Source of the DNA: a virus
Lineage: Duplodnaviria; Caudoviricetes
IMG/VR virus record: IMGVR_UViG_3300033148_004729
Coordinates: 1 to 60,437 of that record
Strand: one strand, 5' to 3'
DNA length: 60,437 nucleotides
Shown: piece by piece, positions 1 to 54,799 of the stretch
Numbering within the stretch: position 1 is the stretch's first letter
How the letters are laid out: each line of letters begins with the position of its first letter
Made by a program: the position numbers and the translations under genes
The notes under the pieces: generated by a model
Database searches by the model: none
What the model was told of the DNA's origin: nothing
Seen by the model: the letters and a program-made list of their open reading frames with translations, nothing else

Positions 1-3000
1 TTCAGCACGAGGGCTGTAAGTGCCCCGGCCGGCGTGGCCCTTCGGAATCGCTTCGGCAAGGAGCCCGTCAAGTACGTTCCCCTGTCGCAGTTTTTCACTT
101 CCAGGCAGCGCAAGGACGGCGAGGACGATGATGCCATTTATGGCAGGCGTGCTCGACCACGTAAAAAGAAGAAGGGCGCCAAGGCGTCTGAGGGCCCCCA
201 GGGGCCCAAGCAGCCGGACACGGACGATGAGACCCGCAGGACGAAGAAGAGTCCCACAGAGGCCGTAGAGGCTCAGGATGGGGTATTCCTGACCGAGCCG
301 CTCGTTGAGGGGAAGATTTGCTGGATGAAGGGATGTTCCAGCCCGGCCACGAAGCAGATTGTGTGGGCTGATGGTCGCGCCATCTTTCCCGTCTGCGATG
401 CCTGCGTCGAGGCCGGCAAGAAGTACCTCAAGAAGAAGAACGGAAAGTGGGCCGAGATCGTTGCTGTCCAGTCCATCAAGGAGGCTGGAAGTGGGCAACC
501 TGTTGCCCACCTCGACGAGTCGGCGGCGCACGTCAAGTCCATCGCCTTGATGCGGTGGCTCTCCAGAGCGGCCAAGGAGCTTCGAGCCGACCAGCATATC
601 TACGTCGTCGGCGGTGCGGTCAGAAACTTCGTCATCGACAAGCCCATCAAGGACGTCGATGTGGTGCTCGACGCCGTGGCCCTCGGGCGCGGGCGCGACT
701 CGGCGTGGTTCGCCAAGCAGCTTCAGAAGCGCATCGGCGCCAGGTCGAAACTGGCAACCAACCAGTACGGGGTGGCCATCCTGACCGTCTCGGGCGACTG
801 GGAGGTCGATGGTCACAACCTCAAGGGCGAGGTCATCGAGATCGCCAACGCCAGGAGCGAGAGCTACGGCGGCGAGGTCGGCAAGGGGTACAAGCCCTCG
901 GACGTGCAGGTGGCGCCCATCGAGAAGGACGTCAAGCGGCGGGAGTTCACGTTCAACTGCATGGGCGGTGACACCCTCATCCCGACCGAGATGGGTATCC
1001 TCCGGATTGACAAGATCGCCGACCGGACCGATGGGGATCGACAATCCATCGAACTTCGGGTCGCCGGGCAGGACGGTCCGGCTGTTGCCGCCGGGTGGCA
1101 GTATAGTGGTCATACCGACACGCTTCGGGTCAAGACTGAGTGGGGGCACACATTCACCTGTACCTATCATCACCCGGTCTTGGTGCTGCGGGGTCACGAG
1201 CACGAATGGGTTCAGGCTGATCAACTCGAAGATAGTGACTTGCTCTGTGTCCCAGTGCGTCAGATGGTGCGCCAGGCCCCGTTGACACTTGACTTGTCCG
1301 ATCCGGTGCCGCCGAAACATGGTCGCCTCAAGGAGATCCGGAAGCCAGAGGTGATGACCCCGGAGCTTGCCTACGTCCTCGGATGTCTTGTGGCCGAAGG
1401 GTCCAACACGGCGAAGAGGGTGTCGTTCAGTAATTCGGACAACGCTTTCATCGCTCGCTACGCCGAGTGCTTTCAGGCTACGTTTGGGTTTGCGCCATCG
1501 CGAAATCAAGTGGTTGCAGAGGGCGACGTCCGGGTGCTGGATGGTGTCGAGTTTCGAGCGACTCGTGACGGGTTCGACATTTACGCGGACAGTCGGACCC
1601 TGGTGGGTTGGTTCGATGAGCTTGGGTTGTACTGTGGTGGCGCATGGGGCGGGAAGTCAGCCTCTCATCACAAGATAGTGCCGTGGTCGATTCTGGAGGC
1701 TGACGAGAAGAGTCAGGCTGCGTTCCTGGCCGCTTACCTGGAGGGTGACGGGTCGATCAGGCCGGACTCGGGGCGCATCACTTACTGTTCCGTTTCGCCG
1801 CATATCCGTCAGCAATTACAGGTACTCCTGGGTGCCCATGGGATACTGAGCAAGGTCAAGGGTCGATTCGTCTACGTCAATGCCGTGGATTCGGCGAAGC
1901 TGTGGTCGAAGATCGAAGCGTGGATGGTTACCAAGCGGTTCGACTACGACGGCGTGAGCTTCAAGTCGCGCAATCGTTACGGCGTCCAAAATGAGCATCT
2001 GGCGGGGTGGTTGAAGGGGCGGCGCGTCAGCGTGGGAAACAACACCGGGGCATCCATCTTTCGAACCGACGATGGTGACGAGGTGTCGCTGGCCGGGATG
2101 ACCGAAGCTCTTCGGCGTCCAAAGCGAATCCTTCACGATTCCGTGGCTCGTGGGGACTACGACACGTTCATGGTGGGGCTCAAGATGGTCAGCCCGACCG
2201 AGTACGCCAAAGTTCAACGGCTCCTTGATCTGGAATACCAGTATGTCGAGGTGGCCTCCGTGGAGAACGCAGGACAGCAGGACGTGTACGACTTGTCCAT
2301 GCACGAGGGAGTCGAGCCAGCTTTTGTAGCCAACGGGGTAATCGTCCACAATACGCTCATGTGGCGGCTGGCCGACCTGGCCAAGGGCCCCGACAAGGCC
2401 GAGATCATCGATCTGGCCGGCTGCGGCCTGAAAGACCTCAAGGCCAGGACCATGAGGTGTCCGTCGGACCCGGACAAGACCTTCTCGGACGACCCCACAA
2501 GGATGCTTCGGGCTATCAAGTTCATGAACAAGTACGGGTTCAAGATCAGCCCGGACACCGAGGCGTCCATCCGGCGCAACGCCAGCAAGCTTCGTAACGC
2601 CCCCTCGGCGGCCATCGCGAAGCTTCTCGTCGACGTCATCTTGAAGGAGCCGCGGACAGCGAAGAAGGCTCTCGGCGAGATGAAGCGGCTCGGGCTCCTC
2701 GACGTGGTGGCGCAGATGGCCCAGGACGACGCATCGTTTCGGGCGACCTTGAGCGGCTGGGCCAACGACCAGCGGGTGGCGCTCCTCTTCCACCTGCTCG
2801 ACCTGGGGCTCCCTCTCAAGACGAAGCTCGGGGCCTTCGAGCCAGCCGAGCAGAAGCGTATCCGGGTCGTGACGGCCACGATGCCGGATGCCGAGGCCTC
2901 AGAATACCTGGCTGCGCTCAAACAGCCTGGTCGGGCGTGGAAGGACAAGCTCTTCTTCGCGGCCATGGCGGCCGACTTGGGCGCAACGGGGAAGGGCATC

Positions 3001-3702
3001 GGTAAATTGGCGCAGCGCGTCAATGGCATTGCCAGGGACGCCATGCTGTCGGACCCCAAGCTCGTGGGCTCGCCAGAGAAGCTCAAGCGCATCATCCGGG
3101 ACGCCATCAAGGACTCGGGAGCCCGTTTTGAGGCCAAGACCCGCAAGTGCGAGTTCTGCCAGAGCCCGGCGACCCACGCCGTGCGAGCCCAGCCGACCGG
3201 CCTTGACGTGTGCGACGAGCACCTGAAGAGGGCTAAGGCACGACTTCGTAAGATGGGGTTCAGGGACTCGCGGATCTCGTCGCATAGGATGGCCACGGTC
3301 TACGGCGAGAGTCGCGAGAGGAGCAACTGCGACTTTGGCAGTAGCGCCTACTACGAATTCGTCAAGAAGAACCAATGCTTTAGGACCAGGGAGTTCGAGG
3401 AGTTCGTCACCGACCACAACAAGGCCGGTCGAGACAGCGGTGAGCTTCAGGACATCGCCATGCACGAGGTCGAACGCCTGGCGCGGGAGTTTGCGAAGAA
3501 GGTCGAGGGCATGACGACCACGGCGAACATCGCCACAACGCCGGTTCCGGTCGGCGCCGGGGATGGCCGCAAGTTCCTCGACTTCGGTCCTGGTCATCCA
3601 TTCCATGGGCGCGATTTCGGTGAGCCGAAGAAGAAGCGGAAGCGGAAGAAGAAGCGCCAGGGCTTGTCGCAACGGCTCTCTTACCTGCTTACCATCCCGT
3701 AG
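1..3702 (+). CDS. cca: CCA-adding tRNA nucleotidyltransferase (class II, PolyA_pol family) with an intein and N-/C-terminal Zn-finger-like extensions; frame open to the window edge, so the true start may lie upstream
   Basis: YVVGGAVRNF...PIKDVD (motif A), IEIANARSESY, DVKRREFTFN (RRDFTxN-like), GLKDL, FSDDPTRMLRAIKF; no stop codon in frame between positions 1 and 34. Confidence 0.9.
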   Translation, partial: FSTRAVSAPAGVALRNRFGKEPVKYVPLSQFFTSRQRKDGEDDDAIYGRRARPRKKKKGAKASEGPQGPKQPDTDDETRRTKKSPTEAVEAQDGVFLTEPLVEGKICWMKGCSSPATKQIVWADGRAIFPVCDACVEAGKKYLKKKNGKWAEIVAVQSIKEAGSGQPVAHLDESAAHVKSIALMRWLSRAAKELRADQHIYVVGGAVRNFVIDKPIKDVDVVLDAVALGRGRDSAWFAKQLQKRIGARSKLATNQYGVAILTVSGDWEVDGHNLKGEVIEIANARSESYGGEVGKGYKPSDVQVAPIEKDVKRREFTFNCMGGDTLIPTEMGILRIDKIADRTDGDRQSIELRVAGQDGPAVAAGWQYSGHTDTLRVKTEWGHTFTCTYHHPVLVLRGHEHEWVQADQLEDSDLLCVPVRQMVRQAPLTLDLSDPVPPKHGRLKEIRKPEVMTPELAYVLGCLVAEGSNTAKRVSFSNSDNAFIARYAECFQATFGFAPSRNQVVAEGDVRVLDGVEFRATRDGFDIYADSRTLVGWFDELGLYCGGAWGGKSASHHKIVPWSILEADEKSQAAFLAAYLEGDGSIRPDSGRITYCSVSPHIRQQLQVLLGAHGILSKVKGRFVYVNAVDSAKLWSKIEAWMVTKRFDYDGVSFKSRNRYGVQNEHLAGWLKGRRVSVGNNTGASIFRTDDGDEVSLAGMTEALRRPKRILHDSVARGDYDTFMVGLKMVSPTEYAKVQRLLDLEYQYVEVASVENAGQQDVYDLSMHEGVEPAFVANGVIVHNTLMWRLADLAKGPDKAEIIDLAGCGLKDLKARTMRCPSDPDKTFSDDPTRMLRAIKFMNKYGFKISPDTEASIRRNASKLRNAPSAAIAKLLVDVILKEPRTAKKALGEMKRLGLLDVVAQMAQDDASFRATLSGWANDQRVALLFHLLDLGLPLKTKLGAFEPAEQKRIRVVTATMPDAEASEYLAALKQPGRAWKDKLFFAAMAADLGATGKGIGKLAQRVNGIARDAMLSDPKLVGSPEKLKRIIRDAIKDSGARFEAKTRKCEFCQSPATHAVRAQPTGLDVCDEHLKRAKARLRKMGFRDSRISSHRMATVYGESRERSNCDFGSSAYYEFVKKNQCFRTREFEEFVTDHNKAGRDSGELQDIAMHEVERLAREFAKKVEGMTTTANIATTPVPVGAGDGRKFLDFGPGHPFHGRDFGEPKKKRKRKKKRQGLSQRLSYLLTIP
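958..2352 (+). mobile_element. Intein (465 aa) with LAGLIDADG homing endonuclease
   Basis: Starts CMGGDTLI, block B FTCTYHHPVL, LAYVLGCLVAEG and FLAAYLEGDG motifs, VYDLS, ends VANGVIVHN followed by T(+1); removal restores RREFTFN-TLM. Confidence 0.95.
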
Positions 3703-3803: not shown

Positions 3804-4795
3804 ATGGACCAAATTACCCCTGAAGCTACCACCAGCACGGATGCTCCCACGCAAGCCCTTGGAACGTCGACGACAAGGCCAGGTCGTCACAGCAAGGCGG
3901 AATCCTCGATACGTCGGATGAGAGCTACAAGCCGGTCACCGAGGCTTCACCAGAGCGTGGAATCTATGGAATTGTTGGCGGGTACGTCGACGACAACGGC
4001 GTTCTGCACAACGAGGTCGAGCTTGAGGCCATGGGTGGTGACGAGGAAGACCTCCTCGGCAACGAGTCTGTTCCGTTCATGAAGCGGATGGATTCAATCA
4101 TGGCCTCCTGCACGAAGAGGATTGGCACCATCACGGACGCGGCCGGGATCCACCGGGCCATCCGGGAGATGCCATCGGGTTCGAAGACTCATCTCTTCAT
4201 ATGTCTGCGGATCACTTCTCATCACAAGACTCAGAAGGACGTGTACGAGATGGAAGTCCGCTGCCCGGACAAGATCCAGTGCGGCAAGATCGGGTACTAC
4301 AAGGTCAGCCTGCTCGACCTCGACCTCTTTCAGCCTGAGGATCCGACGGAGTTGGTCCACGAAATCGAGCTTCCGTACGCCGAGTGCAAGGCGAAGTGGA
4401 AGACGCTCACGGGCAAGGAGGACCACATCCTCACGCTCCTGACAGAAGCGAGCCAGCCCGAGCAGTTGAGTTTCGCCATCCTTGTGCGTCTGGTTGAGCT
4501 TGATGGTGAGCACGTCGAGCTTGCGATGACTGAATGCCTGTCCGGCGACGGCAAAAAGGTGAAGCTCAACAAAAAAGCCACCAACTTGCTGAGGAAGGTC
4601 AAGGCAATGAAGGCCGGAGACCGCGACTTGTTCCGTGGCGACTTCATGGACAAAGAGGCTGGAATCGAGACGGATATTGACGTGACGTGCTCCCATTGCA
4701 ACATGGACTTCATGGCACGGCTCAACGTGGCTCAGGAGGCGTTCTTTTTCCCTCAGGTAACCTCGCGGCGCTCGAAGAGGAGACGCTCTACTTGA
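3804..4795 (+). CDS. Tail assembly chaperone / T4 gp26-like baseplate hub assembly protein; apparent frameshift near 3860
   Basis: Strong SD and ATG at 3804; the frame of ORF 4031 is open from 3824 and reads GGYVDDNGVLHNEVELEAMGGDEEDLL; CPD..C and CSHC pairs; ends in FFFP; lies upstream of the tape measure gene. Confidence 0.75.
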
Positions 4796-5809: not shown

Positions 5810-8800
5810 ATGCCAGGGGGAGGAATGGGGCGCATGATGGGCTTTGGCTTCCTCTTTGGAGCCAAAGACGATGGTGCGGTCCGTATGACCGAGGACATCT
5901 CGGGCGGCATGGGTCGCATGGTCGATGCCACTGAGCGTGTTGGTCGTGAGTCTGCTGGCATTGGTCGTCTCGGCAACTTCATCAACGCCCTCAACCTTCG
6001 GCAGTTGTCTCGTGTTGGCGATGCCATGGAGAACCTCGCCAGCAGGGCTGGAGCCTTGGCAGGCGAGGTTTCTTCGACCTCGATGGAGTCCTTTGGGGCT
6101 GAGTACGCACAAACCTTCAGGGCGGCTACTGCGGGCATGGGTGAGTACGGGGCCGAGGTCGAGTCTGTCAGGGGTGAGATCGGGAGCCTCGCGTTCAACC
6201 TCGGCATCGGAGCCGACGAGATGTTGAGCTACGCCACCACGGTGGCGCGGAGCGGCATGAGCCTCGACGACTTCGGCATTGACATGAGGTCGGTCGCCGG
6301 TTCCATCCAGGCCAACATTCTCTCCGGCGAGCAGCTTGCCGGAGTCCTGACAGGTCTTGCGCGCGGGTATGATCTCGGGGCTGAAGGGGCTACGAGGATT
6401 CTCGACACCATCACGGCAGTCGGTGAGCAATTCGGTGTTGGGGCAGACGCGGCCAGGGCCCTTCCAGAGGTCATGCAGGCCGTTGACGCTGCTGCGGCAC
6501 GCTTCCCGTCCATCGGCGAGAATGTCGATGTTGCCGTTGAGTCCATCACACGACTCGGAATCGCCCAGCAGCGACGCCTTGGGGGCACCTTCCAGGAAGG
6601 CATTTCGTCGGCCATCAACGTCTTCAACGAGCTTGCCGGTACGCGGCGGGAGATGGAGGGCCTGTTCACGGGCTTGAATGATCAGTTCCCGGAGCTTGCT
6701 TCCGAGATTGCGAGGGCCACCGGCAACGTCAGCTTGAGTTTTGACGCCATCATGCAGGACCCGGCCAGGTTCGCTGGGACCATCGCCAGCATGTTCCGGA
6801 GCATGGACCAGGGGAGTCCGGCGGCGTCCAGGCTTCGGGCCGTCCTCGAACAGATGGGGCCTGAGTTCATGTTCCTCGTGCAGGGTGGCGAGGAGTCGGC
6901 TCAAGCTCTCGAAGCTGCCATGGGTTCTGTTGAGGGGGTCGAGGGGGCTTTCAACAGTATGAGTCGGTCTGCGGGTGGGGCGACTCGTACCTTCGCCGAG
7001 TCCATGGAGCTTGTTGAGGAGAGCTTCCGACACCGGCTCGACCGGATGGCGAGGCGCCACTACCCAAACTTCGAGCGTGACGTCCTTCAGCGACAACGGC
7101 GTGCCTACCAGATGATCGGCGATACCATCGCCAGCGTGGCCGGCAGGAGCGGTCCGGTAGGGATGCTCACGAGGTCGATGATTGCATTCCGCCGCGGTGG
7201 TTTCACCGGTCTCGTCGAGGGGTTGTCCAGGGAGACCCGTGGGATGGGGCGGCGATTCGTCGAGGCCGCTGGTGAGGCGAGTCCTGCTCTCGGGGCTATT
7301 GCTCAGGGGTTTGTCGGGCTTGGGGAGAGGGCTCGGGACGCCATGCCGTTCTTGGACGGCGCGGGTGAGATGATCTTTGACATGGCCGGGCAGGCGCTTC
7401 CGACTGCAACTGCGATGGGTGCCCTTGGCCTAAATTTCGAGACCGTTGGACGGGGAGCCCGTGGCGCCGCAAGTGGTATCGGCAGGGTTGTGATGGCCCT
7501 TGGTCCGCTTGCCATCGTTGTCGCTATCGCGGCAGGTGTCTACTTGCTGGTCAGGAATTTTGACCGGGTTCGGGCGTCGCTGTTGAGCGCCGGTGAGAGC
7601 ATCAGGGACTTCGGTGCCAACTTCCTCGATTGGGCAACCAACATTGACTGGGCGACCCTCGGTCAGCGCATTGTTGCTGGTATCGTGTCGATCTTCACGG
7701 GTGCTGGGTCGAGGCTCACAGGGATGGCCGAGGATGCCACCGGGGCCGTCTTGGACCCCGTGTGGGTGCAGATGGGCAGGAACATCCGAGACGGCATCAG
7801 AGACGTCTTCCTTGGCATCATGCACGCCGTTCCAGGGTTGGCCAGAGGCATCTGGACTGGCATCCAAAATCTGTTCTCGGACCCCGAGGCGTTGCGCCAG
7901 GCCATCACGGACAACATCGCATCCATAGGCGAGTTCCTCGGGCCGGCGTTTGAGAGTGCTTTCAGCACACTCGGTGACATCGGTGGGAGGATCTGGGGGT
8001 TCCTCTTCGAGAGGTTCAACATCGGGCCCATCACTGAGGCCATCCAGCAGGGAGACTGGGGTCGAGCCATCTTCGAAGGCATCATCGGCGCGACCGGCGC
8101 TGGTTTTGTCAGGCGGATCTGGGCGCATCTCTTCGGCGAGGAGGCTGTCTCCGAGGGTCTCAGCGGCATTGCAGGGGTCTTCGGCGAGATAGGCACTGGC
8201 ATCTGGGACTCCATGACGACTTGGGTGGAGCTTGCGAGGCCCATCTGGAACGAGTTCATGGGTGCCTTCAGCGAAATCCAAGGTGTCTTCGAGGAGTTGT
8301 GGAGAGACACCATTCAACCGTTGTTTGGCGAGATTTACAACGAGATCGTGCCGTTCATCGAGGAGCTTTTCGGTATTCAGATTGCCGTTGGTGGCGTTGG
8401 TGAAGGGTTCGAGGGTGTACAGGGTGCGGTGAGGGGCTTCTTCGAGAACGTCCAGCGAGGGTGGCGGGTCATGCAGCCCTTCATTATGGAGTTCGTCCGG
8501 AGGATGTTGCCGCGAATCGTTGAAGGTGTAAGGAACTGGGCACGAGGTGTCAGGGTCGTCATCGGGGTGATGCGGAGGGTCTGGCGTGTGGTGGGACCTG
8601 TTTTGCTCAACATCGTGCGCGGGTTCCGCGTGATGATTGAAACTGCTTGGGAGTTTTGGCAGGAGACCTTGAGGCCTGTCCTTCAGCGTATTTTCCGTAC
8701 ATTCCGGCGTGTCTTTGTGCGGTATATTCTTCCGACGGTTCGTCGGGTGTTTACGACTCTCGGTAGAGTCATCAGAGTGTGGTGGCGCCGTCGGGTGAGG

Positions 8801-9784
8801 CCGATCCTTAGTGCGTTGTGGGATCGGTTCAGCAGGACGTTCAGTTTTATCGTTCGGACAGGCCGGACTGTCTTCAACTACCTCCAGCGGCACATCACCA
8901 ACCGCATTCGTCAGGCGGCGATGGTCTTCCAGGTGCTCGGGGAGAGGTGGAGGGCCACGAAGGAAGTGCTCAGGGCTGGGTTCCGTGTCATTGCTGCTGA
9001 GGTCAACAGGTGGCTGGTCGTGCCGTTTTTGCGGCTTCAGGGCACCTTGGTTGGCATGGCCGACATCATCAGGCTTGCTTTCCTGAGGGTCAAGATGGGC
9101 GTCATGGATATGATGCTCAGTATCGTACAGGGCTTTCAGACGTTTTTGCGGAACATCACTGGAGTCGGACCGACCTTGGCCAGAGCCTTGGACCCTGCTG
9201 TGACGGCGATTCAACAGCGCATCACGACAATCGGAGGCGCGACCGGAGAAGGCGGCGAGATTGGCCAATTCATGGCCAGGACTGAACGAGAAAGATTGTC
9301 GCGTCAGGGTCAAATTGACGAGGCCAACACGAGGGCTGACAGCGCCAGGGAGGCGGCGGCGGCGGCCGAGGTCACGAGGCAACAGGTCGAGCGAGAGGCT
9401 CGTGTCAGGATGGCTCACGCGGAGCGTATGGCAAGCGCAGCCCCGGAGCCACCGACGAGAGCCACGGGTGCGCCCACGCGCGCAAGAGGGGTTGCGGCAC
9501 CTGCTGCTGTGGCTGCTGCTGGCGTTCCAGAGGTCATGGCAGGCCCAAGGAGGGGGGAGGAGTCGGAGCCCGGAGTGGCAACTTCTAGGCGCAGAGAGGC
9601 CGAGGAGGAGCGAAGGACGAGGGAAACAGAGGATCTTGCTGATGCCATTGCCATCAGTGAGTTCGGCAGCCAGGCCATCGGGCAGATGCGGGATGCGGTG
9701 CAGGAGGCTATTCAGAGGTCCAGGCGAACGACGCCACCACCTCGACGGCGAGGCGGGGAAAGGGTCCTGACGACAGACCCGTAG
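5810..9784 (+). CDS. Tail tape measure protein
   Basis: 1324 aa, Ala/Gly-rich helical sequence with W/F-spaced repeats and a hydrophobic segment; lies between the chaperone and LysM genes. Confidence 0.88.
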   Translation: MPGGGMGRMMGFGFLFGAKDDGAVRMTEDISGGMGRMVDATERVGRESAGIGRLGNFINALNLRQLSRVGDAMENLASRAGALAGEVSSTSMESFGAEYAQTFRAATAGMGEYGAEVESVRGEIGSLAFNLGIGADEMLSYATTVARSGMSLDDFGIDMRSVAGSIQANILSGEQLAGVLTGLARGYDLGAEGATRILDTITAVGEQFGVGADAARALPEVMQAVDAAAARFPSIGENVDVAVESITRLGIAQQRRLGGTFQEGISSAINVFNELAGTRREMEGLFTGLNDQFPELASEIARATGNVSLSFDAIMQDPARFAGTIASMFRSMDQGSPAASRLRAVLEQMGPEFMFLVQGGEESAQALEAAMGSVEGVEGAFNSMSRSAGGATRTFAESMELVEESFRHRLDRMARRHYPNFERDVLQRQRRAYQMIGDTIASVAGRSGPVGMLTRSMIAFRRGGFTGLVEGLSRETRGMGRRFVEAAGEASPALGAIAQGFVGLGERARDAMPFLDGAGEMIFDMAGQALPTATAMGALGLNFETVGRGARGAASGIGRVVMALGPLAIVVAIAAGVYLLVRNFDRVRASLLSAGESIRDFGANFLDWATNIDWATLGQRIVAGIVSIFTGAGSRLTGMAEDATGAVLDPVWVQMGRNIRDGIRDVFLGIMHAVPGLARGIWTGIQNLFSDPEALRQAITDNIASIGEFLGPAFESAFSTLGDIGGRIWGFLFERFNIGPITEAIQQGDWGRAIFEGIIGATGAGFVRRIWAHLFGEEAVSEGLSGIAGVFGEIGTGIWDSMTTWVELARPIWNEFMGAFSEIQGVFEELWRDTIQPLFGEIYNEIVPFIEELFGIQIAVGGVGEGFEGVQGAVRGFFENVQRGWRVMQPFIMEFVRRMLPRIVEGVRNWARGVRVVIGVMRRVWRVVGPVLLNIVRGFRVMIETAWEFWQETLRPVLQRIFRTFRRVFVRYILPTVRRVFTTLGRVIRVWWRRRVRPILSALWDRFSRTFSFIVRTGRTVFNYLQRHITNRIRQAAMVFQVLGERWRATKEVLRAGFRVIAAEVNRWLVVPFLRLQGTLVGMADIIRLAFLRVKMGVMDMMLSIVQGFQTFLRNITGVGPTLARALDPAVTAIQQRITTIGGATGEGGEIGQFMARTERERLSRQGQIDEANTRADSAREAAAAAEVTRQQVEREARVRMAHAERMASAAPEPPTRATGAPTRARGVAAPAAVAAAGVPEVMAGPRRGEESEPGVATSRRREAEEERRTRETEDLADAIAISEFGSQAIGQMRDAVQEAIQRSRRTTPPPRRRGGERVLTTDP

Positions 9785-9796
9785 GAGTAGAAGTGA

Positions 9797-10129
9797 ATGG
9801 GTGAAGTCAGCATCAGAAGCACGTCGAGGCTCAGGTTTGCTCGGTACGTCACGACCGGTGGCGTCGACTACTGGGAGCTTCCAGAGTACCCTGAGGTGCC
9901 ACCGGCTCCGGACGACATCCTCTACACGGTCACCCGGAAAGACCGCATCGACTCGCTTGCTCAGAGGTTCTACGGCGACTCGACCCTCTGGTACATCATC
10001 GCCCTGGCCAATGACTTTCGGCTTGTGCCGACGGACATGCGGGAGAACATGCAGCTTCGCATCCCGAACGGCAAGCGTGTCTTCACTGAGATCCTGAGGA
10101 GTGCCAATCGGGGCGAGGAAGGGAAGTAG
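9797..10129 (+). CDS. LysM / gpX-like baseplate wedge protein
   Basis: YTVTRKDRIDSLAQRFYGDSTLWYIIALAN...LRIP. Confidence 0.88.
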   Translation: MGEVSIRSTSRLRFARYVTTGGVDYWELPEYPEVPPAPDDILYTVTRKDRIDSLAQRFYGDSTLWYIIALANDFRLVPTDMRENMQLRIPNGKRVFTEILRSANRGEEGK

Positions 10130-10130
10130 C

Positions 10131-11576
10131 TTGCCTGTCCTCGATCCCTCTGGTTTCCAGATCGCCGTCATCGTCAAGCGGAACGACGTGCGGTTCCCGT
10201 TGTGGATCGGCGGGGCCAGACGAGATGACTCCAGCATCTTCTTCGATCCATCAATTGAGTTTCCGGACATCCCCATCGTTGAAAGCATCAATATCGAGAT
10301 TGGGATGGGCCTCATGGGGAAGATCGGCATCGAGATCTCGGCGCCGTATGACCTCGGGCTCGCATTGCTTCAGAGTCGGCTTTTCACCATCGGCAGCATC
10401 ATCGAGGTACAGATCGGTTACCCGAAAATTTCCAGATTCATCCCGTGGTTCTCGGCCATGCAGTCGAAGCCAACTATCAACCTGAGCCAGGAGGAGGGTC
10501 TCAGCGCGACATTGAACGGTGAAGCTGGGGCTTTCGCCTCGATGCGGGTTAGTTCTTCTGAGACGTACGACGGCTCGTACGCGGACATCATCACCGAAAT
10601 CGCGAATCAGGATTCCAACCAGTGGACCTTGAGCTTGCCGGCGCGGATCGGGACTGATGATGCCCTCTACACGTCTAGGCAGGGTGTCAGCCAGGGTAAC
10701 TCGCCGGACTGGCCTTTCATCATGCGGCTGTGTCGGTTGGCGAACTGCGATGCCTACATCGCCCAGGACCCACAGCAGGCAGGACGGAATCGCATCGTGG
10801 TCCTTCGGCGCTCGGAGTCGATGGCGGGCACACCGAGGTTCACCTTTGTGAGTCGTGGTAGGTCAGATTTCGTCAACACCTTCCCTTTGCTTGAGTTCGA
10901 GTCGACGGCCGAGCAGGTGTGGCTGCCTTCCAATTATGGTGAGGTCACGGCTGCTGCCATTGATCCGAGGACTGGAGCAATCATCTCGACCACGGCGACA
11001 CCTGAGCAGAGCGGGACGCCGAGGGGTCCTGGGGACAGCGGTGCGGGCGGAAGCCCGACAAGAGTCGATGGCACCACGGTGGCGCTGGCGTCGACCAGAA
11101 GGGATGAACGCGGAACAGGAGAGCGGTTGTCTCCGTCGCCGAGGGCTTCGGCGACTCCACAGGAGGTTGTGGCGTCGAGGTCAGAGGAGGGGCAACAGGG
11201 TGGCGGTTTGAACGCCAACATGACGAGCTTTGGGTTGCCGGAGCTTCTTCCAGGCGAGGTGATTCGTATTGCAGGGGCCGGGATCTTCGATGGCAACTAC
11301 GGCGTCGAGACGGTCCAGCATGCTGCAAACGCCGAAGAGTGGACCATGAACGTGAAGCTCTTGAGCAACTCCCTCTTCAATGGTGAGAATCTCATGACGG
11401 GGATGAGCTTGCCGTGGAGAGCCTTCGGTGGGCGCGTCAACGACCAGCCGGCAGTGGAGGTTCCGGAGGCGGCGAGTGGAGCAACTGATACGGTGGATGC
11501 CCTTCTTTCTGACCTCGAAGCGGAGCCATCTCCGTTGCCAGACCTGACAGGGCTTGGCGGTGGCGGTGACATCTGA
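10131..11576 (+). CDS. Baseplate hub protein (late control D / Mu gp44 / T4 gp27-like)
   Basis: IEVQIGY, SQ...DWPFIMRL, G.PELLPGEVIRIAGAG.FDGNY.V..VQH; position after LysM; TTG start assumed. Confidence 0.8.
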   Translation: MPVLDPSGFQIAVIVKRNDVRFPLWIGGARRDDSSIFFDPSIEFPDIPIVESINIEIGMGLMGKIGIEISAPYDLGLALLQSRLFTIGSIIEVQIGYPKISRFIPWFSAMQSKPTINLSQEEGLSATLNGEAGAFASMRVSSSETYDGSYADIITEIANQDSNQWTLSLPARIGTDDALYTSRQGVSQGNSPDWPFIMRLCRLANCDAYIAQDPQQAGRNRIVVLRRSESMAGTPRFTFVSRGRSDFVNTFPLLEFESTAEQVWLPSNYGEVTAAAIDPRTGAIISTTATPEQSGTPRGPGDSGAGGSPTRVDGTTVALASTRRDERGTGERLSPSPRASATPQEVVASRSEEGQQGGGLNANMTSFGLPELLPGEVIRIAGAGIFDGNYGVETVQHAANAEEWTMNVKLLSNSLFNGENLMTGMSLPWRAFGGRVNDQPAVEVPEAASGATDTVDALLSDLEAEPSPLPDLTGLGGGGDI

Positions 11577-12318
11577 TGGCCATTCCTCGCATGAGAGGCT
11601 CTCCTCAGTACAGTGCGACAGGGTTCCGCCGGTTCCTCGACGACATCCTCATGCACGGGCTCGAAGTCATCGGGCTCTACTATGGGTGCTACAGAGCGAA
11701 GGTCATTGGGGGCGTCTCACGGTTCAGATACCGGCCGTGGATGGGACTTCAGTGCGGGCAACCAGGCTTGCCTATCCCATCACCGCCATCGCAGGTCCGC
11801 AGTACGGTTTCAAGAGTTTGCCTCCTGTCCACACCGACGCGGTGCCGAGCATGGTCTACGTCATCTTCGAGCGCGGCAAGGTGGAGGCCCCATTGTGGTT
11901 CGGGGGGTGGTGGCGAGACGGTGATCTCCCGACCGACCTCCAGCCGGCCGACGCTCACGGGTGGTTCACGCCGGGCGGCCATCAGATTCTTCTTGACGAC
12001 CAAGACGGCCAGGAAGTCATCAGGTTCAAGCACAAGGACGGCGAGACCCGCATCGAGTTCAACGCCCAGGGCCGGATCTTCATCGTCAACAAGTCCGGGC
12101 AGAAGGTCTACATCGGTGACGGAGCGGACACCGCCAACGAGCCGGCGGTGCTTGGGGAGACCCTCAAGGGGTTGCTTGAGAGCCTCATTGATCAGATCGT
12201 GTTGATCAAAGTACCAACGCCAACGGGGTCGTCACAGGTTCCGATCAATGCGGCTCAGTTCCAGCAGATTCGTGGGCGTTTGAACACGGTTCTCAGCCAG
12301 ACCGTGGGCTTGAAGTGA
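11576..12318 (+). CDS. Baseplate central spike (gpV/gp5/VgrG OB-fold), split by a frameshift near 11705
   Basis: One frame gives YYGCYRAKVI; the -1 frame gives GRLTVQIPAV...AGPQYGF..LP...VYVIFERG...PLWFGGWW...TPGGH.ILLDD...VLGETL...TPTGSS..PIN. Confidence 0.8.
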
Positions 12319-12327
12319 GGGGCGAGG

Positions 12328-12813
12328 ATGTCACTGATTTCAGCCACGCTTGTCTCTTCGCTGACGACCATCCTGGGGGCTCCATCGACGAGTGGCGCCG
12401 AGAAGGCCCAGCAGCTTGGAACGGCGTACCAGGCGTACGCCTTGACGGCTACGGCAGGAGTTTTGCTGCCAATCTTTGTTGGGATCGAGGGTCGCGTCAT
12501 GGCGGCCAGGCTGACGCCTGTGCTGAGTGCAACGCATTCGACGGCGTACGATTTCGCGAATGCTCTAGCAGGCGGCGTCGAGGCATTTTGGCTTCTCCCT
12601 CCTGTTCCTTTCACGGGTGGGGTGGCAGCCGGTTTGGTTTCTGCCTTCATCGGAAAGAGTGCCTTGGTAGCAGCGGTGGCGGGTATCTTGGCAACACCAA
12701 CGTCTTTGCACGGACCAGTGGCGATCCAGTTGGCGAGTGCGCTCGATGTGGCGACGAGGACGGTCACGGTGACCTTCGCGCCGCCTCCGGGGTCCACGGT
12801 GACCCTGCTGTGA
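12328..12813 (+). CDS. Hypothetical baseplate-associated protein
   Basis: SD and ATG; lies between spike and gp25 genes; Ala-rich. Confidence 0.6.
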   Translation: MSLISATLVSSLTTILGAPSTSGAEKAQQLGTAYQAYALTATAGVLLPIFVGIEGRVMAARLTPVLSATHSTAYDFANALAGGVEAFWLLPPVPFTGGVAAGLVSAFIGKSALVAAVAGILATPTSLHGPVAIQLASALDVATRTVTVTFAPPPGSTVTLL

Positions 12814-12830
12814 GGTAGGATAGGTCGGCC

Positions 12831-18613: not shown

Positions 18614-18895
18614 ATGGCCTTCTACACGGCGGATCAGAGTTACTATGACTACGTGACCCCGGATACTTGGGGCGCGAAGTACGGCTTGAAGCCTGGGTAC
18701 GTTTATGTTGGTGCAGGTGGTGGCGGCGTGACCGAGTATTGGATGAACAAGTGCTGGGACCCGGGTGGTCCTGCGTGGGTGTTCTGGGAGACACCGAACG
18801 CACCGGACCCGGCCGGGGCCTCGTACCCAGACCCGTACGCCACGGGCTTCGGGGGTTGCTCCGACTACCGGGTGGCGTTCAAGCGGTATCAGTAG
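18614..18895 (+). CDS. Small fibre-associated protein, copy 1
   Basis: EYWMNKCWDPGGPAWVFWET...GASYPDP..TGFGG shared with 22815-23090. Confidence 0.7.
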   Translation: MAFYTADQSYYDYVTPDTWGAKYGLKPGYVYVGAGGGGVTEYWMNKCWDPGGPAWVFWETPNAPDPAGASYPDPYATGFGGCSDYRVAFKRYQ

Positions 18896-18905
18896 GAGGG
18901 GCAGG

Positions 18906-19793
18906 ATGACAGCGAACAGCCCCAGGATGGGATGGCCCTACCCCGCACGGGAAGATGACCCGTGGTACGACGGGTTCGAGGACTTCGTTCAGGCTGACGA
19001 TGCTTCTGGCTTCGCCCACAGGGAAGACAGGAACCTCTTCATCACCGGGGGTGGTACCTTGTCGTGGGATGCCGGAACGGGCGTCCTGACGTGGACTGAG
19101 GCCATCCAGCTCGTTTCTCCGACGACAGGGTTCCTCCTTGGTATCGCGGCTGACTCCGTGACCATCGAGAACGGCGAGGTGCTCTACGCCGTATTGGTCC
19201 GTCAGGCGCTCGAAGCCAGGACCCTCACCAAGGCCATCGCGAATTCGGTGCCGTCGAACGACAACGCCTTCATGCTGTGTGTCAGGATCGGCAACAACCT
19301 CCACTGGCGCAACGGCCTTGTGATGTCGAGTGGCTCGTCGGTGAGTGGAGTCGGTTTTTCGGGTTCTGGCATCTCTCTCAGCATCGAGACGGGACGTGCA
19401 GACTACGTGCAGGTGAATCCCACGGTCGAGGAGGTCGTGGGACAGTGGATGCTCGACGGTGCTGTTGTTGCTGGCGGTGTGAGGTTCAGGTGCATGATGC
19501 GGCCGACCTTCAACGCGGCCGGGTGGGCGCGCGTGCGCGTGTACGATCTCGGAGCCGTCGGGACCCCCGCGGCGGCTGTCGAGATCACGGATGACGCGAC
19601 GGCGGCCTATCGAATGCAGGCAACGACTTCTGGCCTTGTCTACCTGGAAACGTCGGTGATGACGATAGGGGTCTCCCCGGGCGTTGGGCAGATTGTCAAC
19701 GCCAGGAGGATGTACGAGGCGACCTTGGAGCAAAGCTCCTTGGCAGGTGACACGGTAGATTTCGGCTTCGCTGGCGTCTACGTGGGGGTGTAG
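18906..19793 (+). CDS. Tail fibre base/adaptor protein B
   Basis: Paralog of 15972-17381 without the internal repeats; SD before ATG 18906. Confidence 0.7.
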   Translation: MTANSPRMGWPYPAREDDPWYDGFEDFVQADDASGFAHREDRNLFITGGGTLSWDAGTGVLTWTEAIQLVSPTTGFLLGIAADSVTIENGEVLYAVLVRQALEARTLTKAIANSVPSNDNAFMLCVRIGNNLHWRNGLVMSSGSSVSGVGFSGSGISLSIETGRADYVQVNPTVEEVVGQWMLDGAVVAGGVRFRCMMRPTFNAAGWARVRVYDLGAVGTPAAAVEITDDATAAYRMQATTSGLVYLETSVMTIGVSPGVGQIVNARRMYEATLEQSSLAGDTVDFGFAGVYVGV

Positions 19794-28174: not shown

Positions 28175-28576
28175 ATGGCAGTTGAAATAGTGACGCAGAA
28201 TGGCCTGGAGGGCTTCACCGAGGTGGACCTTGGGGTGGAGGTCTCCGGGATGACCATCACGGTCAAGGCCGGAGAGGCCAAGTGGTGCGGGAGGGATGTG
28301 TCGCTTGCTGAGGACAAGACCTATGTGGTCGATGACGATCCTGATGGCAGGTCGGTCATGGGCCATCTCGTCGAGGAAGAGTCCGGTGGCATCAACGTCC
28401 TCGTGGACGAGGTTGGCCAGGACGACACTCCCTACTACTTCTTCGGGAGTCCGTATGTCTCGGTGATGCTGCTGTTCCGGTGCGATGTTCCAGGCGGGGC
28501 TTCGAGCATCGAGGACGCTTCCATGAAGACGTACAGGGTCGTGCAGCCACCCGGCCCAGAAGAAGGAGATGAGTGA
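28175..28576 (+). CDS. Hypothetical virion-associated protein
   Basis: ORF directly after the fibre gene; acidic and beta-rich. Confidence 0.55.
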   Translation: MAVEIVTQNGLEGFTEVDLGVEVSGMTITVKAGEAKWCGRDVSLAEDKTYVVDDDPDGRSVMGHLVEEESGGINVLVDEVGQDDTPYYFFGSPYVSVMLLFRCDVPGGASSIEDASMKTYRVVQPPGPEEGDE

Positions 28577-28767
28577 TGGGAAAGGCAATCTCAGGGAAGG
28601 CGATCAAGGCGTCGGACTCGAAGTACGTTGACCGCAAGGCTGCAAAGGTCGCCAAGAAGGGTTTCGTCGCGGCCTTCGATGGGAAGGTGTTCGCTGATCT
28701 CACAGGAGGAGAGAAGGACGACCTTCTGAAGGTCTTGGCCATCGCTGCTGGTATCATCAGCGAGTAG
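28576..28767 (+). CDS. Hypothetical small protein
   Basis: SD; start overlaps the upstream stop. Confidence 0.55.
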   Translation: MGKAISGKAIKASDSKYVDRKAAKVAKKGFVAAFDGKVFADLTGGEKDDLLKVLAIAAGIISE

Positions 28768-51689: not shown

Positions 51690-52283
51690 TTAGCTCTTCG
51701 GCCCGGAGCAGACGAAGATCTTCTCCTTGGAGTCTGGGACTGGTTGAAGCTCGACGGACCAGAAGTGCTCCACAAGGACAGCCTCAAGCTCGTCGCGGCC
51801 CTTCGCTCCTGGGGGCAGGTAGGGCCTCGGATCGGAGGCCAGGTTCGCAACCAAACGGCCACCTTCGGCGAGAGCCCCTTGCAATTGTTGGAGGGTGCCG
51901 AGGAGAGCCGTGAGTGATGGCTGGACGTTCATGACGTTCGAAGCGAGGACCGTCTCGTACTGCTTCGAGAGCGCATCAGGAGAGAGCAGACCAGCTTGGA
52001 AGGCTTCGTAGAACTTCGAGGCCCTTCCGCTTGCTTCGCCTTCTTCTGGCGCCCACTCGTAGCCGACGACCTCGTACCCCTCGTTGCGAAGCTCCTCGAC
52101 CTGAACAGCGTCGACCCCGCACCCGAAGTCGAGCATCGAGCCAGCTTTCTCGGGCGGTAGGTTTTCCCGTAGCCATCTCGGCACGAGAGGACCGGGGCCG
52201 CCACCGACGCGCCGTCGGCATGTGGCGCCCATCCTTTTGTACTCGTTCTTTGTTGGTTCGTGTTTCATGGCGTGACTTCTCAC
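51690..52283 (-). CDS. Class I SAM-dependent methyltransferase
   Basis: MLDFGCG, V.GYE, YE.VLASNVMNVQ; start at GTG 52283 or ATG 52268. Confidence 0.8.
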   Translation of the reverse strand: MRSHAMKHEPTKNEYKRMGATCRRRVGGGPGPLVPRWLRENLPPEKAGSMLDFGCGVDAVQVEELRNEGYEVVGYEWAPEEGEASGRASKFYEAFQAGLLSPDALSKQYETVLASNVMNVQPSLTALLGTLQQLQGALAEGGRLVANLASDPRPYLPPGAKGRDELEAVLVEHFWSVELQPVPDSKEKIFVCSGPKS

Positions 52284-52289
52284 GTCACT

Positions 52290-52317
52290 AACATAAACCA
52301 TAATGAGCATCTGTCAA
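52290..52317 (-). promoter_or_regulatory. Promoter of the TTGACAGACG class
   Basis: TTGACAGATGC...TATGTT, 16-nt spacer. Confidence 0.7.
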
Positions 52318-52379: not shown

Positions 52380-53333
52380 TTACGCTGCTTTCTTCTGGGG
52401 CTCTTCGTTGGCCACGTAGCCGCCTCTTTCGGCGGCCTTCCGGAGCCACGTCACGGCCTTCTTTGCCTTGCTGGCGGCCTTGTAGAAGTACCGTTGGTCG
52501 TCTTCGAGGGCTCCCAGCCAGTGGCCGAGGTACTCAGCGTGCTGGCAGCGTCCATCAAGCTGGAACTCGGCCCCGAGGAACGCGGCCGTCAACTCGGCGA
52601 CAAGCTCCTCTTCGGCGTAGGCCTCCTTGCCGACGATGGTTCGGGCGCCGATGCCTCGTGCGAGTCGACTTTTGTGGCCGGTTGCGTGCCCGTACTCGTG
52701 CAGGTGCGTCAAGTAGAACTCCTCGATGGCTCTGTAGAGCTTCGCGGGTGGGATCCGAACTTCATCGATCAGGGGCACGTAGCACGCCTTGTCGCCGCCG
52801 TACTTGAGCCCGAAGCTGCTGCCCTCTTGTGCGCATGCGAGGAACCGCTCGACCCTGGCGTCACGTTCGTGCTCGGGAAGCTCTTCGGGGAGGTGTTTGA
52901 TGTACCTTGTGGGTTCCACTGTCGTTTGCTCGACGTTGTAGACGACCTGGGCACCGGACATCCAGAAGCGCACCACCTTGGGGTCGCCGTTGTTGTCGAG
53001 GACCGCCTGACCGTCCTTGTCGGTCTTGAGTCGCTCATCGGGGCGGAACCAGATTACGGCTCGACCGTTGTCCCACTCGTCTTGTTTGACATGGCCACCA
53101 AGGGCCTGGGCTTGCTTCCACGTCAGCCAGAGGGGATAGCTGTATTCCTTCACCGACTGGAGCGCGCCCAGGTACAGCGCGTTGACGCCGTTGTAGACGC
53201 GGCCTGTCTTTGCGTTCCGTTGGGCCCCGAGGGTCTGCCAGGGCTTCGCCCATGGCGCTACGCCTGCCTTGATGCTCTCCAGCAGGGTTTCCGCCTGGGC
53301 CTCGTAAGCATCCTGTGTTTTTGCCTTCATCAT
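52380..53333 (-). CDS. ardC: ArdC-family antirestriction protein (ssDNA-binding domain plus zincin-like domain)
   Basis: PW.KPW, N..TGR.Y.GVN.L.L, WLTWKQA..LGG.V, VYNVEQ, A.Y.P..D.V..P, HEYGHATGH.SRL.R, YA.EELVAEL.AAFL. Confidence 0.92.
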   Translation of the reverse strand: MMKAKTQDAYEAQAETLLESIKAGVAPWAKPWQTLGAQRNAKTGRVYNGVNALYLGALQSVKEYSYPLWLTWKQAQALGGHVKQDEWDNGRAVIWFRPDERLKTDKDGQAVLDNNGDPKVVRFWMSGAQVVYNVEQTTVEPTRYIKHLPEELPEHERDARVERFLACAQEGSSFGLKYGGDKACYVPLIDEVRIPPAKLYRAIEEFYLTHLHEYGHATGHKSRLARGIGARTIVGKEAYAEEELVAELTAAFLGAEFQLDGRCQHAEYLGHWLGALEDDQRYFYKAASKAKKAVTWLRKAAERGGYVANEEPQKKAA

Positions 53334-53357
53334 AACGCCCTCCCTGGTTGCATTACC

Positions 53358-53386
53358 AGTGTGGTCACATGGGATGCGTCTGTCAA
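53358..53386 (-). promoter_or_regulatory. Promoter of the TTGACAGACG class
   Basis: TTGACAGACGC...CACACT, 17-nt spacer. Confidence 0.6.
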
Positions 53387-53548
53387 GGCTTGCTCTGGTC
53401 AATCCGGTGCTTATGTTGAAGGTAATGGAGGTCGAGGATGCCTCCCTCAGCATCTACAAACTCGGTGAGGGTTGAGGAGGTGCTTGGGGGCTGAGAGAGC
53501 CGTGTGATAGATTCATATTTCGTAGGCGGCTCAAGATGGGAGCATGGG

Positions 53549-54799
53549 ATGAGTCTATCCAGTCAGCTTGATGATGCCCTTGCCGAATGGGCAATGGCGA
53601 AGCCCGGAGAGAAGCGTGAGCGTAAGGACGGGTACATCTGGCAGAAGCAGCGAAGCGGAGCGTGGAAGCGCCTCCACAAAGCCGCTGGCCGCAAAGCTGG
53701 GGCCGAGGAGGGTGCCGCCGTCGAGGCTGCCAGCAAGGCCATGAACGCCAAGGACGCGCCGGTGCCGAAGGGGCGCATCTGGATTGACCATGTTCCGGGG
53801 CTTCCGAACGACACCCAGAAGGCTCACATCGACACGGAGACCGGCGACTACAAGCCGGAGCGCAAGGCTCTCCACAGGAAGATCATCGAGGGCTTCCTGG
53901 CTGGGAATATGGTCAAGGGGGAGTTCGTTCCTGCTCAGGTTGTACCTGAAGGTCATCAGCCTGAGACACTGTTCATGATGGGCACTACGGCTTCGGGTAA
54001 GAGCAGCGCACGCAGAGAGGTCGATCCGGACCCGTTCAAGAAGTTCGGTGTTGTCGAGGTCGATCCGGATGCCATCAAAGCGATGCTTCCGGAGTACCAA
54101 AAGTCGATTTCCATGTCGGCTCGGGACGCTGCGAAGATCACTCATGAGGAGTCCTCTGACATCGCCGATCAGATCCGGAAGCTCGCCCTGGAGCAGAACA
54201 AGAACATCCTCGTTGACGGGACCGGCAAGACACTCGATACGGTCGAGAAGAAGATCAAAGAGGCGAAGGCCCGAGGTCATCACATTTCTGCGCTTATGCC
54301 GCACGTCCCGCTGGATCAGTGCAAGGAACGGGCGGACGACCGTGCTGAGAAGAAGGGGCGGTACGTGCCTCACTTCGTCATCGAAAAGTGCGCCGAGAAG
54401 GTGGGCAAGAACTTCATGGCGCTGAAGGACACGTTCGACACCTTCACTCTGTTCGACAACAGGACATTGGAAGGTGGCAAGAGGAAGCCACCAACACCAA
54501 TCATGAAGAAGCCGCCGGAGCCGCCGAAAGTCATTGATTCGGACTACTTCAAGCTGTTCTTGAGGGAGTCTGGCATCACGATGGAGTGGATCCGGTCCAA
54601 GGGGAATCTGATGACCGAACAAGATCAAGAGAAGATGGACTCACGAGAAGGTCCACCGCCGAAGAAGAAGCGCGCCGTCGACCCGGAAGCGTACGATGCG
54701 TGGTTCATCAATACCATCGAGGCCGAGAATGCGGCCAACGACGCGGAGCCCGCGGACTACAAGGTCGGCGAAGGTGTCGAGGAAGTCCTCGGTGACTAG
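53549..54799 (+). CDS. Zeta-toxin-family P-loop kinase
   Basis: MG..ASGKSS, VDPDAIK..LPEY, HEESS.IA, LVDGT, R...R....GRYVP, LFDN. Confidence 0.88.
   Translation: MSLSSQLDDALAEWAMAKPGEKRERKDGYIWQKQRSGAWKRLHKAAGRKAGAEEGAAVEAASKAMNAKDAPVPKGRIWIDHVPGLPNDTQKAHIDTETGDYKPERKALHRKIIEGFLAGNMVKGEFVPAQVVPEGHQPETLFMMGTTASGKSSARREVDPDPFKKFGVVEVDPDAIKAMLPEYQKSISMSARDAAKITHEESSDIADQIRKLALEQNKNILVDGTGKTLDTVEKKIKEAKARGHHISALMPHVPLDQCKERADDRAEKKGRYVPHFVIEKCAEKVGKNFMALKDTFDTFTLFDNRTLEGGKRKPPTPIMKKPPEPPKVIDSDYFKLFLRESGITMEWIRSKGNLMTEQDQEKMDSREGPPPKKKRAVDPEAYDAWFINTIEAENAANDAEPADYKVGEGVEEVLGD

Follow-up and report, generated by a model that had tools for sequence, protein, structure and literature searches.

The window analyzed here is the whole of a 60.4-kb phage contig (IMG/VR record IMGVR_UViG_3300033148_004729, 60,437 nucleotides) with a guanine-plus-cytosine (GC) content of ~60% and nearly every gene on the plus strand. 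It encodes a tape measure protein of 1324 amino acids (aa) with only three lysines and, shortly downstream, a predicted baseplate hub protein of 491 aa with six. The purge of lysine is independent of GC content, conserved, protein-specific, and coupled between these two tail-core proteins. Evasion of a host activity directed at lysine is the explanation that we tentatively favor, and an arginine-specific role is its main rival.

Lysine content of the tape measure and hub proteins

Codon-usage-based calling gave a set of 61 genes for the window, in which the two proteins are encoded as follows.

5810..9784, plus strand: tape measure protein, 1324 aa, 3 lysines, 145 arginines, no cysteine; best match phrog_58 (E = 3.5e-32); residues 20-1050 free of lysine
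10101..11576, plus strand: predicted baseplate hub (gp27/gp44/VgrG fold), 491 aa, 6 lysines, 31 arginines; Foldseek search with a model

Besides phrog_58, the product of 5810-9784 matched the PHROG tape measure families phrog_4200, phrog_1272, phrog_1535, and phrog_167 with E values of 1e-14 to 6e-13 and, as an additional weak match, phrog_4070 (E = 5.2e-4), and no Pfam family was found for it at E ≤ 0.01. The gene is the longest of the tail block and lies directly 5′ of the baseplate hub genes. The original prediction, that this protein has three lysines (in the motifs AKDD, TKEV, and VKMG), no cysteine, and arginine throughout, agrees exactly with the translation, in which lysine occurs only at residues 19, 1051, and 1095, respectively. 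The longest lysine-free run spans 1031 aa or 78% of the protein. We calculated the ratio of lysine to lysine plus arginine, K/(K+R), for the window genes and for homologues; it was 0.02 for the tape measure and 0.466 for the remaining 60 genes pooled (837 lysines, 961 arginines; median of the genes, 0.43). The binomial probability of at most 3 lysines among 148 basic residues was 2e-35 against these 60 genes and 3e-22 against the tail/baseplate block alone (0.34).

The hub had a K/(K+R) of 0.16 and a lysine-free run of 295 aa (60% of its length), and its depletion was weaker in statistical terms (P = 8e-5 versus the other window genes and P = 0.015 versus the tail/baseplate block). It had been described as a protein of ~480 aa with about 5 lysines, which is a fair count because one of the six, K7, precedes the position at which homologues begin. 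A published definition of the lysine desert calls for a stretch without lysine that covers 150 aa or more, or else 50% or more of the sequence (PMC10665810), and by this definition both proteins are deserts. A longest lysine-free run of at least 50% of the length was present in 13 of 34 desert-class members of the tape measure family. The absence of cysteine is a generic trait of the family: it holds for 141 of the 159 members of at least 700 aa (P0003-P0164), irrespective of their lysine content, as well as for the tape measures of five cultured phages that were checked.

The AlphaFold model of the hub had a mean confidence score (pLDDT) of 56, and 279 of its 491 residues reached at least 50. 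In a Foldseek search of the PDB it matched the hub of a contractile injection system (7b5h_AJ, E = 2.4e-18) and, at E values of 1e-13 to 3e-9, VgrG, Mu gp44, T4 gp27, and the pyocin R2 hub. Judged by its modeled fold, the product of 10101-11576 is thus a predicted baseplate hub of the gp27/gp44/VgrG type.

The original prediction had set the depletion against very lysine-rich neighboring proteins of head type. Lysine-rich proteins (7.7-10.9% lysine) are indeed encoded nearby, but their assignment to the head is not supported: among them are an intein-containing tRNA nucleotidyltransferase and a kinase-like protein of the Zeta/AAA_33 type, and the function of the others could not be assigned. 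The accompanying claim that GC content does not account for the depletion was confirmed by relatives of widely different composition. Desert tape measures were found in loci with GC contents of 0.454 (9 lysines, 165 arginines), 0.519 (3 and 140), 0.583 (1 and 134), 0.587 (5 and 121), and 0.637 (two loci, 5 and 123 and 9 and 109), and the genes flanking these six had K/(K+R) values of about 0.4-0.65. Lysine-rich homologues came from loci with GC contents of 0.625 (80 lysines, 40 arginines), 0.566 (75 and 56), 0.55-0.57 (K/(K+R) of 0.76-0.82), and 0.389 (202 and 65), and locus GC and tape measure K/(K+R) were related with a rho of only -0.14 (n = 13). As the desert is kept from 45% to 64% GC and lysine-rich homologues exist at equal GC, GC content is not the cause of the lysine depletion in the tape measure. 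Nor is comparable depletion typical of tape measures at like GC content, the outcome that the original prediction had named as evidence against itself: in five cultured phages with GC contents of 0.63-0.67, tape measure K/(K+R) was 0.31 (phiCTX), 0.70 (L5), 0.62 (TM4), 0.70 (phiC31), and 0.38 (BcepMu), with pooled genome backgrounds of 0.38-0.44.

A compositional artifact, in which neutral drift or a mutational bias, local or driven by GC, turned AAR lysine codons into the arginine codons CGN and AGR, is close to refuted and very improbable. It could draw on the 60% GC of the window, on the generally lower lysine content at high GC, and on the raised share of AGR among the arginine codons of the tape measure (41% versus 32%, p = 0.02), as single AAR-to-AGR changes would yield. 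However, the desert is kept at 45% and 52% GC, neighboring genes lie at 0.4-0.65, the A-containing codons for asparagine, glutamate, and glutamine are normal, none of the five tape measures from phages with 63-67% GC is depleted, and the depletion has a P of ~1e-35 against the window's own genes.

Coupling, phylogeny, and replacement of lysine

A word-index search combined with a full profile search yielded a tape measure family of 1880 proteins at E ≤ 1e-3, of which the best 150 were examined. Among these 150, K/(K+R) was bimodal: values were either below 0.10 or between 0.45 and 0.87, with few in between. How far the neighboring genes take part in the trait was analyzed for orthologues in related loci, which include those of the following window genes.

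9797..10129, plus strand: predicted LysM-fold baseplate protein (gp53/gpX-like), 110 aa, 3 lysines, 13 arginines; fold match
11576..12318, plus strand: conserved post-hub gene, spike candidate by position alone; two-frame tblastn match
3804..4795, plus strand: conserved gene upstream of the tape measure gene; weak match to phrog_150 ("baseplate hub")

The lysine-rich sister phage L011 (GC 0.566) was compared with seven desert loci pooled, with the following K/(K+R) values.

Tape measure: L011, 0.57; desert, 0.04; difference, 0.53
Hub: L011, 0.64; desert, 0.12; difference, 0.53
Post-hub gene: L011, 0.65; desert, 0.39; difference, 0.26
163-aa gene (small baseplate gene): L011, 0.73; desert, 0.47; difference, 0.26
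Upstream gene, LysM protein, gp25-like gene, J-like gene, and two others: difference, -0.03 to 0.10

For four other orthologues, each available as one pair, the difference ranged from -0.19 to +0.24. The comparison thus singles out the tape measure and the hub, as the original prediction of a depletion shared by both proteins implied, and the post-hub gene is only moderately lower in lysine in the desert phages. Across loci, the K/(K+R) values of tape measure and hub were correlated (rho 0.75, p = 0.008, n = 11), a figure that ignores shared ancestry and includes some hubs with over-extended starts. The upstream gene, directly 5′ of the tape measure gene in all relatives, is lysine-rich everywhere (0.34-0.58 in desert and intermediate loci, 0.74 in L007) and therefore is an internal control. 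The LysM protein is lysine-poor in every relative, the lysine-rich ones included (0.20 versus 0.18).

A relative of 183 kb shows the same specificity. Its tape measure (0.076) and hub (0.091) both rank among the lowest 7 of 124 genes, for which the median is 0.38, and its capsid (0.33) and sheath (0.31) are close to that median. This contig (G001:C445, loci L022-L031; 183,466 bases) has 168 of its 188 genes on one strand and carries capsid, protease, sheath, tape measure, and baseplate genes, so that it looks like an entire large phage genome. It was binned in a genome labeled Phycisphaerae, perhaps wrongly, as it may represent a separate phage and not a prophage, which makes this label weak evidence for the host.

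Other candidates for lysine depletion were considered. A ~140-aa open reading frame (ORF) two genes past the sheath had no lysine and 12 arginines in L014 (4657-5079) and 7 lysines and 4 arginines in L011 (745-1170), a difference of 0.64 from a single pair; no family match was found for it, and it could belong to the covarying set as a third protein. A depletion of the tail tube was suggested by a 265-aa gene with 1 lysine and 13 arginines after the sheath of the 183-kb relative. This candidate was dropped, as the gene had no tblastn homologue in the other loci and the PHROG tube-like genes of L014 were ordinary (9 lysines and 12 arginines, 8 and 18). In the window, the supposed desert 12315-12818 was superseded by the frame 12328-12813 of the codon-usage gene set, and its translation was judged non-coding. 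The tail-region ORF 18765-19793, lysine-poor as listed (1 lysine), is over-extended at its 5′ end and comprises 295 aa from the methionine at 18906, so that it was rejected as a desert; its L011 orthologue has 7 lysines and 29 arginines, and no family match was found.

Trees were calculated for the N-terminal domain of the tape measure from an hmmsearch-derived alignment in which every lysine and arginine was masked, and the trait was therefore unable to shape them. The 156 family representatives that were placed comprised 115 lysine-rich, 32 desert, and 9 intermediate rows. In the FastTree phylogeny of these rows, a clade of 47 with a support of 100 united 30 desert, 5 intermediate, and 12 lysine-rich rows. 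The two other desert rows, P0147 (0.05) and P0110 (0.08), were placed inside lysine-rich clades elsewhere, as were several intermediate rows, and well-supported FastTree branches forced at least 8 changes of lysine state. In an IQ-TREE phylogeny of 55 rows rooted with a lysine-rich outgroup, a lysine-rich subclade of 11 rows was nested among the desert rows. From these trees, one gain of the desert is secure, a reversal to the lysine-rich state inside the main clade is likely but not proven, and support for independent gains comes from the two distant rows.

Searches for the loci of P0147 and P0110 gave no match in viral contigs, and those with P0147 and P0130 gave none in metagenome contigs; the search for loci with the P0110 trio returned four, all lysine-rich. 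Among 50,697 phage records, no match was found for the window's tape measure with megablast or tblastn or for that of the lysine-rich sister with tblastn. The J-like baseplate protein alone had remote matches in these records (at most 28% identity), mainly to baseplate wedge genes of cyanophages. The lineage is one of uncultured large contractile-tailed phages (myophages), and it is widespread. No cultured relative was found, and no host was assigned.

The homologous positions indicate what became of the lysines. At the 32 alignment columns occupied by lysine in the nearest lysine-rich subclade, the desert rows have arginine in 40%, glutamate in 12%, glutamine in 10%, alanine in 8%, and serine in 7% of cases, and almost no lysine. 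Arginine columns kept arginine in 68% of the desert residues. The total of lysine plus arginine in the N-terminal domain falls from 11.4% in lysine-rich to 8.5% in desert proteins, and the N-terminal 600 residues are purged to the same extent (0.36% lysine versus 7.0%). Pairwise alignment with the sister phage reveals direct exchanges at homologous positions, such as VGRESAG for VGKQTSG and LVRNFD for VYKNWD. Few lysines remain: that of the AKDD motif is conserved, also in the lysine-rich kin, and the motifs TKxVL and LRVKxxVL retain lysine in the consensus of 16 clade members. As most former lysine columns are now non-basic and the basic content is lower, these changes look like a removal of lysine and not a gain of arginine. 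This is the signature that would be expected if lysine were harmful as a side chain and were removed even where its charge was dispensable, and it would be less expected under a specific need for arginine. In this clade, two central tail proteins have been purged of lysine, which purifying selection would continue to exclude, and selection probably acts against lysine itself.

Gene layout and other features of the window

Two further features concern the tape measure gene directly.

8390..9199, plus strand: Arg/Trp/Val-rich amphipathic segment of the tape measure, residues 861-1130; composition per 100 residues
4955..5809, plus strand: HNH endonuclease, phrog_374 (E = 1.8e-66), 16 lysines, 36 arginines; outside the desert

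The segment of residues 861-1130 resembles membrane-active peptides. The stop codon of the HNH endonuclease gene abuts the start codon of the tape measure gene, and the gene separates the latter from the conserved upstream gene. In the ORF lists of related loci only ~100-200 bases lie between these two genes, and the HNH gene looks like a homing-endonuclease insertion. Downstream of the post-hub gene follow a gp25-like gene (Pfam GPW_gp25, E = 4.7e-17) and a Baseplate_J-like gene. In the related loci that include the downstream genes (for example, L001, L002, L005, L006, L010, L011, and L014), the tape measure gene is followed in the same order by those for the LysM protein, the hub, and the gp25-like and J-like proteins. 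The model of the LysM protein (pLDDT 73.5) matched in Foldseek the baseplate initiator of cyanophage A-1(L), the P1 baseplate, and LysM domains (best E = 9.7e-4). Pfam Phage_gp53 was found in 5 of 7 members of this protein family (best E = 6.3e-5), and the window member scored below the cutoff for Phage_gp53, Phage_tail_X, and LysM.

Two conserved genes contain frameshift-like breaks: the upstream gene at ~3860-3875, where the N-terminal ~20 residues lie in another frame, and the post-hub gene at a GGGGG run at ~11700-11715. They may be assembly errors or genuine frameshifts, so that some assembly error in the contig is possible. The tape measure gene itself reads through 1324 codons without a break, and a database entry of 1316 aa is identical to its product along 99% of the length.

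About 50 ORFs of the window were scanned against Pfam and/or PHROGs, the majority without a match. Among those with matches, the tRNA nucleotidyltransferase at 34-3702 (PolyA_pol head domain) contains an intein that bears a LAGLIDADG endonuclease domain (Intein_splicing, E = 3e-14, residues 323-773). On the minus strand, 52380-53453 encodes a fusion of an ArdC-like anti-restriction N-domain and a zincin-like metallopeptidase (ArdcN, E = 3e-22; MPTase-PolyVal, E = 1e-32) and shares a short minus-strand block with the gene for a methyltransferase (51690-52310). The product of 53504-54799 is a Zeta_toxin/AAA_33 kinase-like protein (E = 1.3e-26) with 10.9% lysine that also matches the polynucleotide kinase family phrog_505. 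A 64-aa ORF at 28573-28767, within the tail-fiber region, has 11 lysines and 1 arginine and the top coding score per codon in the window.

Candidate explanations and known systems

A lysine side chain anywhere on the tape measure or hub may put the phage at a disadvantage, as the target of some host activity. In one version, a defense based on conjugation of a ubiquitin-like protein (Ubl) would tag the tail-initiation complex of hub and tape measure during assembly; in another, the extended tape measure and the hub would come under lysine-specific attack upon entering the envelope at injection, if they are taken, as inferred, to be the envelope-penetrating parts of the tail. Arginine would substitute where a charge is wanted and glutamate, glutamine, alanine, or serine elsewhere, and lysine would be left at a few conserved positions. 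Evasion of such an activity, by tagging or proteolysis, is the purpose that we tentatively assign to the desert. That Ubl conjugation specifically is what is evaded appears rather doubtful, and it would be equally bold to regard the tail-initiation core as a lysine-free module that evolved, and in places was given up, as an escape from a host defense that covalently modifies lysines of the tail core while it is nascent or once it has been injected.

Published work makes evasion plausible in three respects. Lysine deserts in ubiquitin-system proteins, toxins, and mycobacteriophages have been read, in the available text of the two papers, as evasion of lysine-directed tagging (PMC10665810, PMC13696103). 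According to the preprint text available, the Bil (bacterial ISG15-like) defense conjugates a Ubl to the central tail fiber of phages and impairs tail assembly (bioRxiv 10.1101/2023.09.04.556158). The lambda tape measure was biotinylated at injection by a TurboID fusion on the cytoplasmic side, as described in the accessible part of a further preprint (bioRxiv 10.1101/2025.11.03.685801), which shows that its lysines are accessible to host-side enzymes.

A number of observations weigh against this reading. No lysine-directed agent was identified and no host assigned, and no gene for a Ubl, E1, E2, deubiquitinase, or lysine-relevant protease was present among the ~50 window ORFs scanned. The known Bil target, as far as the available preprint text goes, is a siphophage tail fiber and not a tape measure. 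The candidate spike would enter the envelope first and yet is only mildly depleted (0.32-0.54). The Arg/Trp-rich C-terminal module is confined to desert and intermediate members (37 of 38 phmmer hits), which links the trait to the architecture of the tape measure and would equally suit an arginine-specific function. The correlation between tape measure and hub (n = 11) amounts in effect to one full within-clade contrast, L011, plus lysine-rich outgroups. Finally, an approximately unbiased (AU) test did not reject a single clade of desert and intermediate rows (p = 0.41), which would correspond to one origin in the main clade and no reversal, and the evidence for repeated change therefore rests on the two distant FastTree rows and the five intermediate rows. 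Searches of the Phycisphaerae-labeled bin (G001), which is incomplete and perhaps not the host, carry no weight in either direction: Prok-E2_A had no match, the control likewise matching nowhere, and Prok-JAB had two generic matches.

The main rival, possible though less likely than evasion, assumes that arginine is wanted: its guanidinium group binds the phosphates of lipid or DNA, or acidic residues of the tube lumen or hub cavity, better than the lysine amine does, so that a tape measure built around a membrane-active Arg/Trp module would work better with arginine alone, and the hub would coevolve with the tape measure C terminus that it holds. Hub and tape measure are indeed in contact in solved baseplates. 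Residues 901-1000 contain 23 arginines and 6 tryptophans in amphipathic spacing, phmmer found the segment in 38 family members of which all but one are desert or intermediate, the proteins of the nested lysine-rich subclade are shorter (831-1145 aa) and lack it, and the final tenth of the tape measure is arginine-rich in lysine-rich kin too. However, the N-terminal 600 residues, which lie outside the module, are equally purged; 60% of the former lysine columns are non-basic and the total basic content is down, contrary to what a demand for arginine predicts; and the phmmer matches may be partly due to shared arginine-rich composition. An effect of the physical environment, in which lysine, unlike arginine, loses its charge at high pH or is disfavored by salt adaptation, is improbable: lysine is replaced by arginine in alkaline-adapted secreted enzymes, but other virion proteins and enzymes in the same genomes retain lysine, and removal at sites that are now non-basic is not predicted.

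We consider it similarly improbable that the phages avoid lysine codons in response to a loss of tRNA-Lys to host anticodon nucleases at a late stage of infection. The window's CCA-adding enzyme (34-3702) could serve tRNA repair, the polynucleotide kinase match of 53504-54799 could belong to the same function, and the structural proteins of the window contain 1.3-3.2% lysine versus 7.7-10.9% in its enzymes. Against this, genes that adjoin the tape measure gene and are conserved with it are lysine-rich (5.7-8.7% lysine), capsid and sheath are ordinary in a relative, and in the sister phage the difference is limited to tape measure and hub. The least probable account is that the phages infect an actinobacterial host and evade its Pup-proteasome tagging, the hypothesis put forward for lysine deserts of mycobacteriophages (PMC10665810, PMC13696103, as far as their text is available). 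The clade spans GC contents of 45-64%, and no Pup_ligase match was found in the incomplete and perhaps non-host bin G001, the control being matched in Corynebacterium; both make Pup unlikely, if on weak evidence. In addition, the tape measures of the mycobacteriophages L5 (0.70) and TM4 (0.62) are lysine-rich.

The case is of more general interest because lysine deserts have been debated chiefly for eukaryotic ubiquitin-system proteins and for high-GC actinobacteria, where composition confounds the analysis; a family that contains all-arginine and lysine-rich members at equal GC is free of this confounder. With the trait common to two interacting proteins and neighboring genes as internal controls, selection on lysine becomes directly testable in a phage, and K/(K+R) is a simple statistic with which metagenomic phages can be screened. 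If escape from defense is the cause, the share of lysine in tape measure and hub would amount to a readable genomic scar of Ubl-like or other lysine-directed antiphage immunity and could predict which phages face such systems. If arginine-specific membrane chemistry is the cause instead, the desert would inform on the passage of the tape measure across the inner membrane.

Among known systems, Bil resembles the present case in that its target belongs to the tail-tip or initiation complex, in which hub and tape measure come next. It differs in that a siphophage fiber is targeted; escape through loss of lysine is not described, and the words "lysine" and "escape" do not occur in the available text of the preprint (bioRxiv 10.1101/2023.09.04.556158); no Bil operon has been linked to the desert phages. 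SNIPE, a membrane nuclease, recognizes tape measures during injection, and escape mutations map to the tape measure (bioRxiv 10.1101/2025.11.03.685801, in the part accessible). There, as may be the case here, an ejected tape measure meets a host defense at the inner membrane and its sequence evolves under that pressure; unlike here, recognition is via binding and not via lysine chemistry, and in the portion of the preprint accessible it concerns siphophages only.

Like ordinary tape measures, namely the P2 gpT-like proteins of phiCTX and BcepMu, L5 gp26, TM4 gp17, and phiC31 gp43, the window protein is long, rich in alanine and glycine, free of cysteine, and encoded in the tail block, but the K/(K+R) of those proteins is 0.31-0.70 at GC contents of 0.63-0.67, versus 0.02 here. 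Literature searches did not turn up any tape measure or hub described as lysine-free, although supplementary tables of the lysine-desert papers might list individual phage proteins, perhaps with tape measures among them. For phage proteomes, the desert literature seen consists of a pan-proteome statistic for Mycobacterium phages and the Pup hypothesis, and "tape measure" does not occur in the available text of the two papers (PMC10665810, PMC13696103). With the known deserts of ubiquitin-system proteins, of the catalytic chains of AB toxins routed through the endoplasmic reticulum, and of actinobacterial and Mycobacterium phage proteins, the present one shares long conserved lysine-free stretches in which arginine takes the basic role. 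Unlike them, it affects a pair of virion proteins that interact in a contractile tail, is independent of GC content over 45-64%, and is confined to one clade of a mostly lysine-rich family in which the two partners covary.

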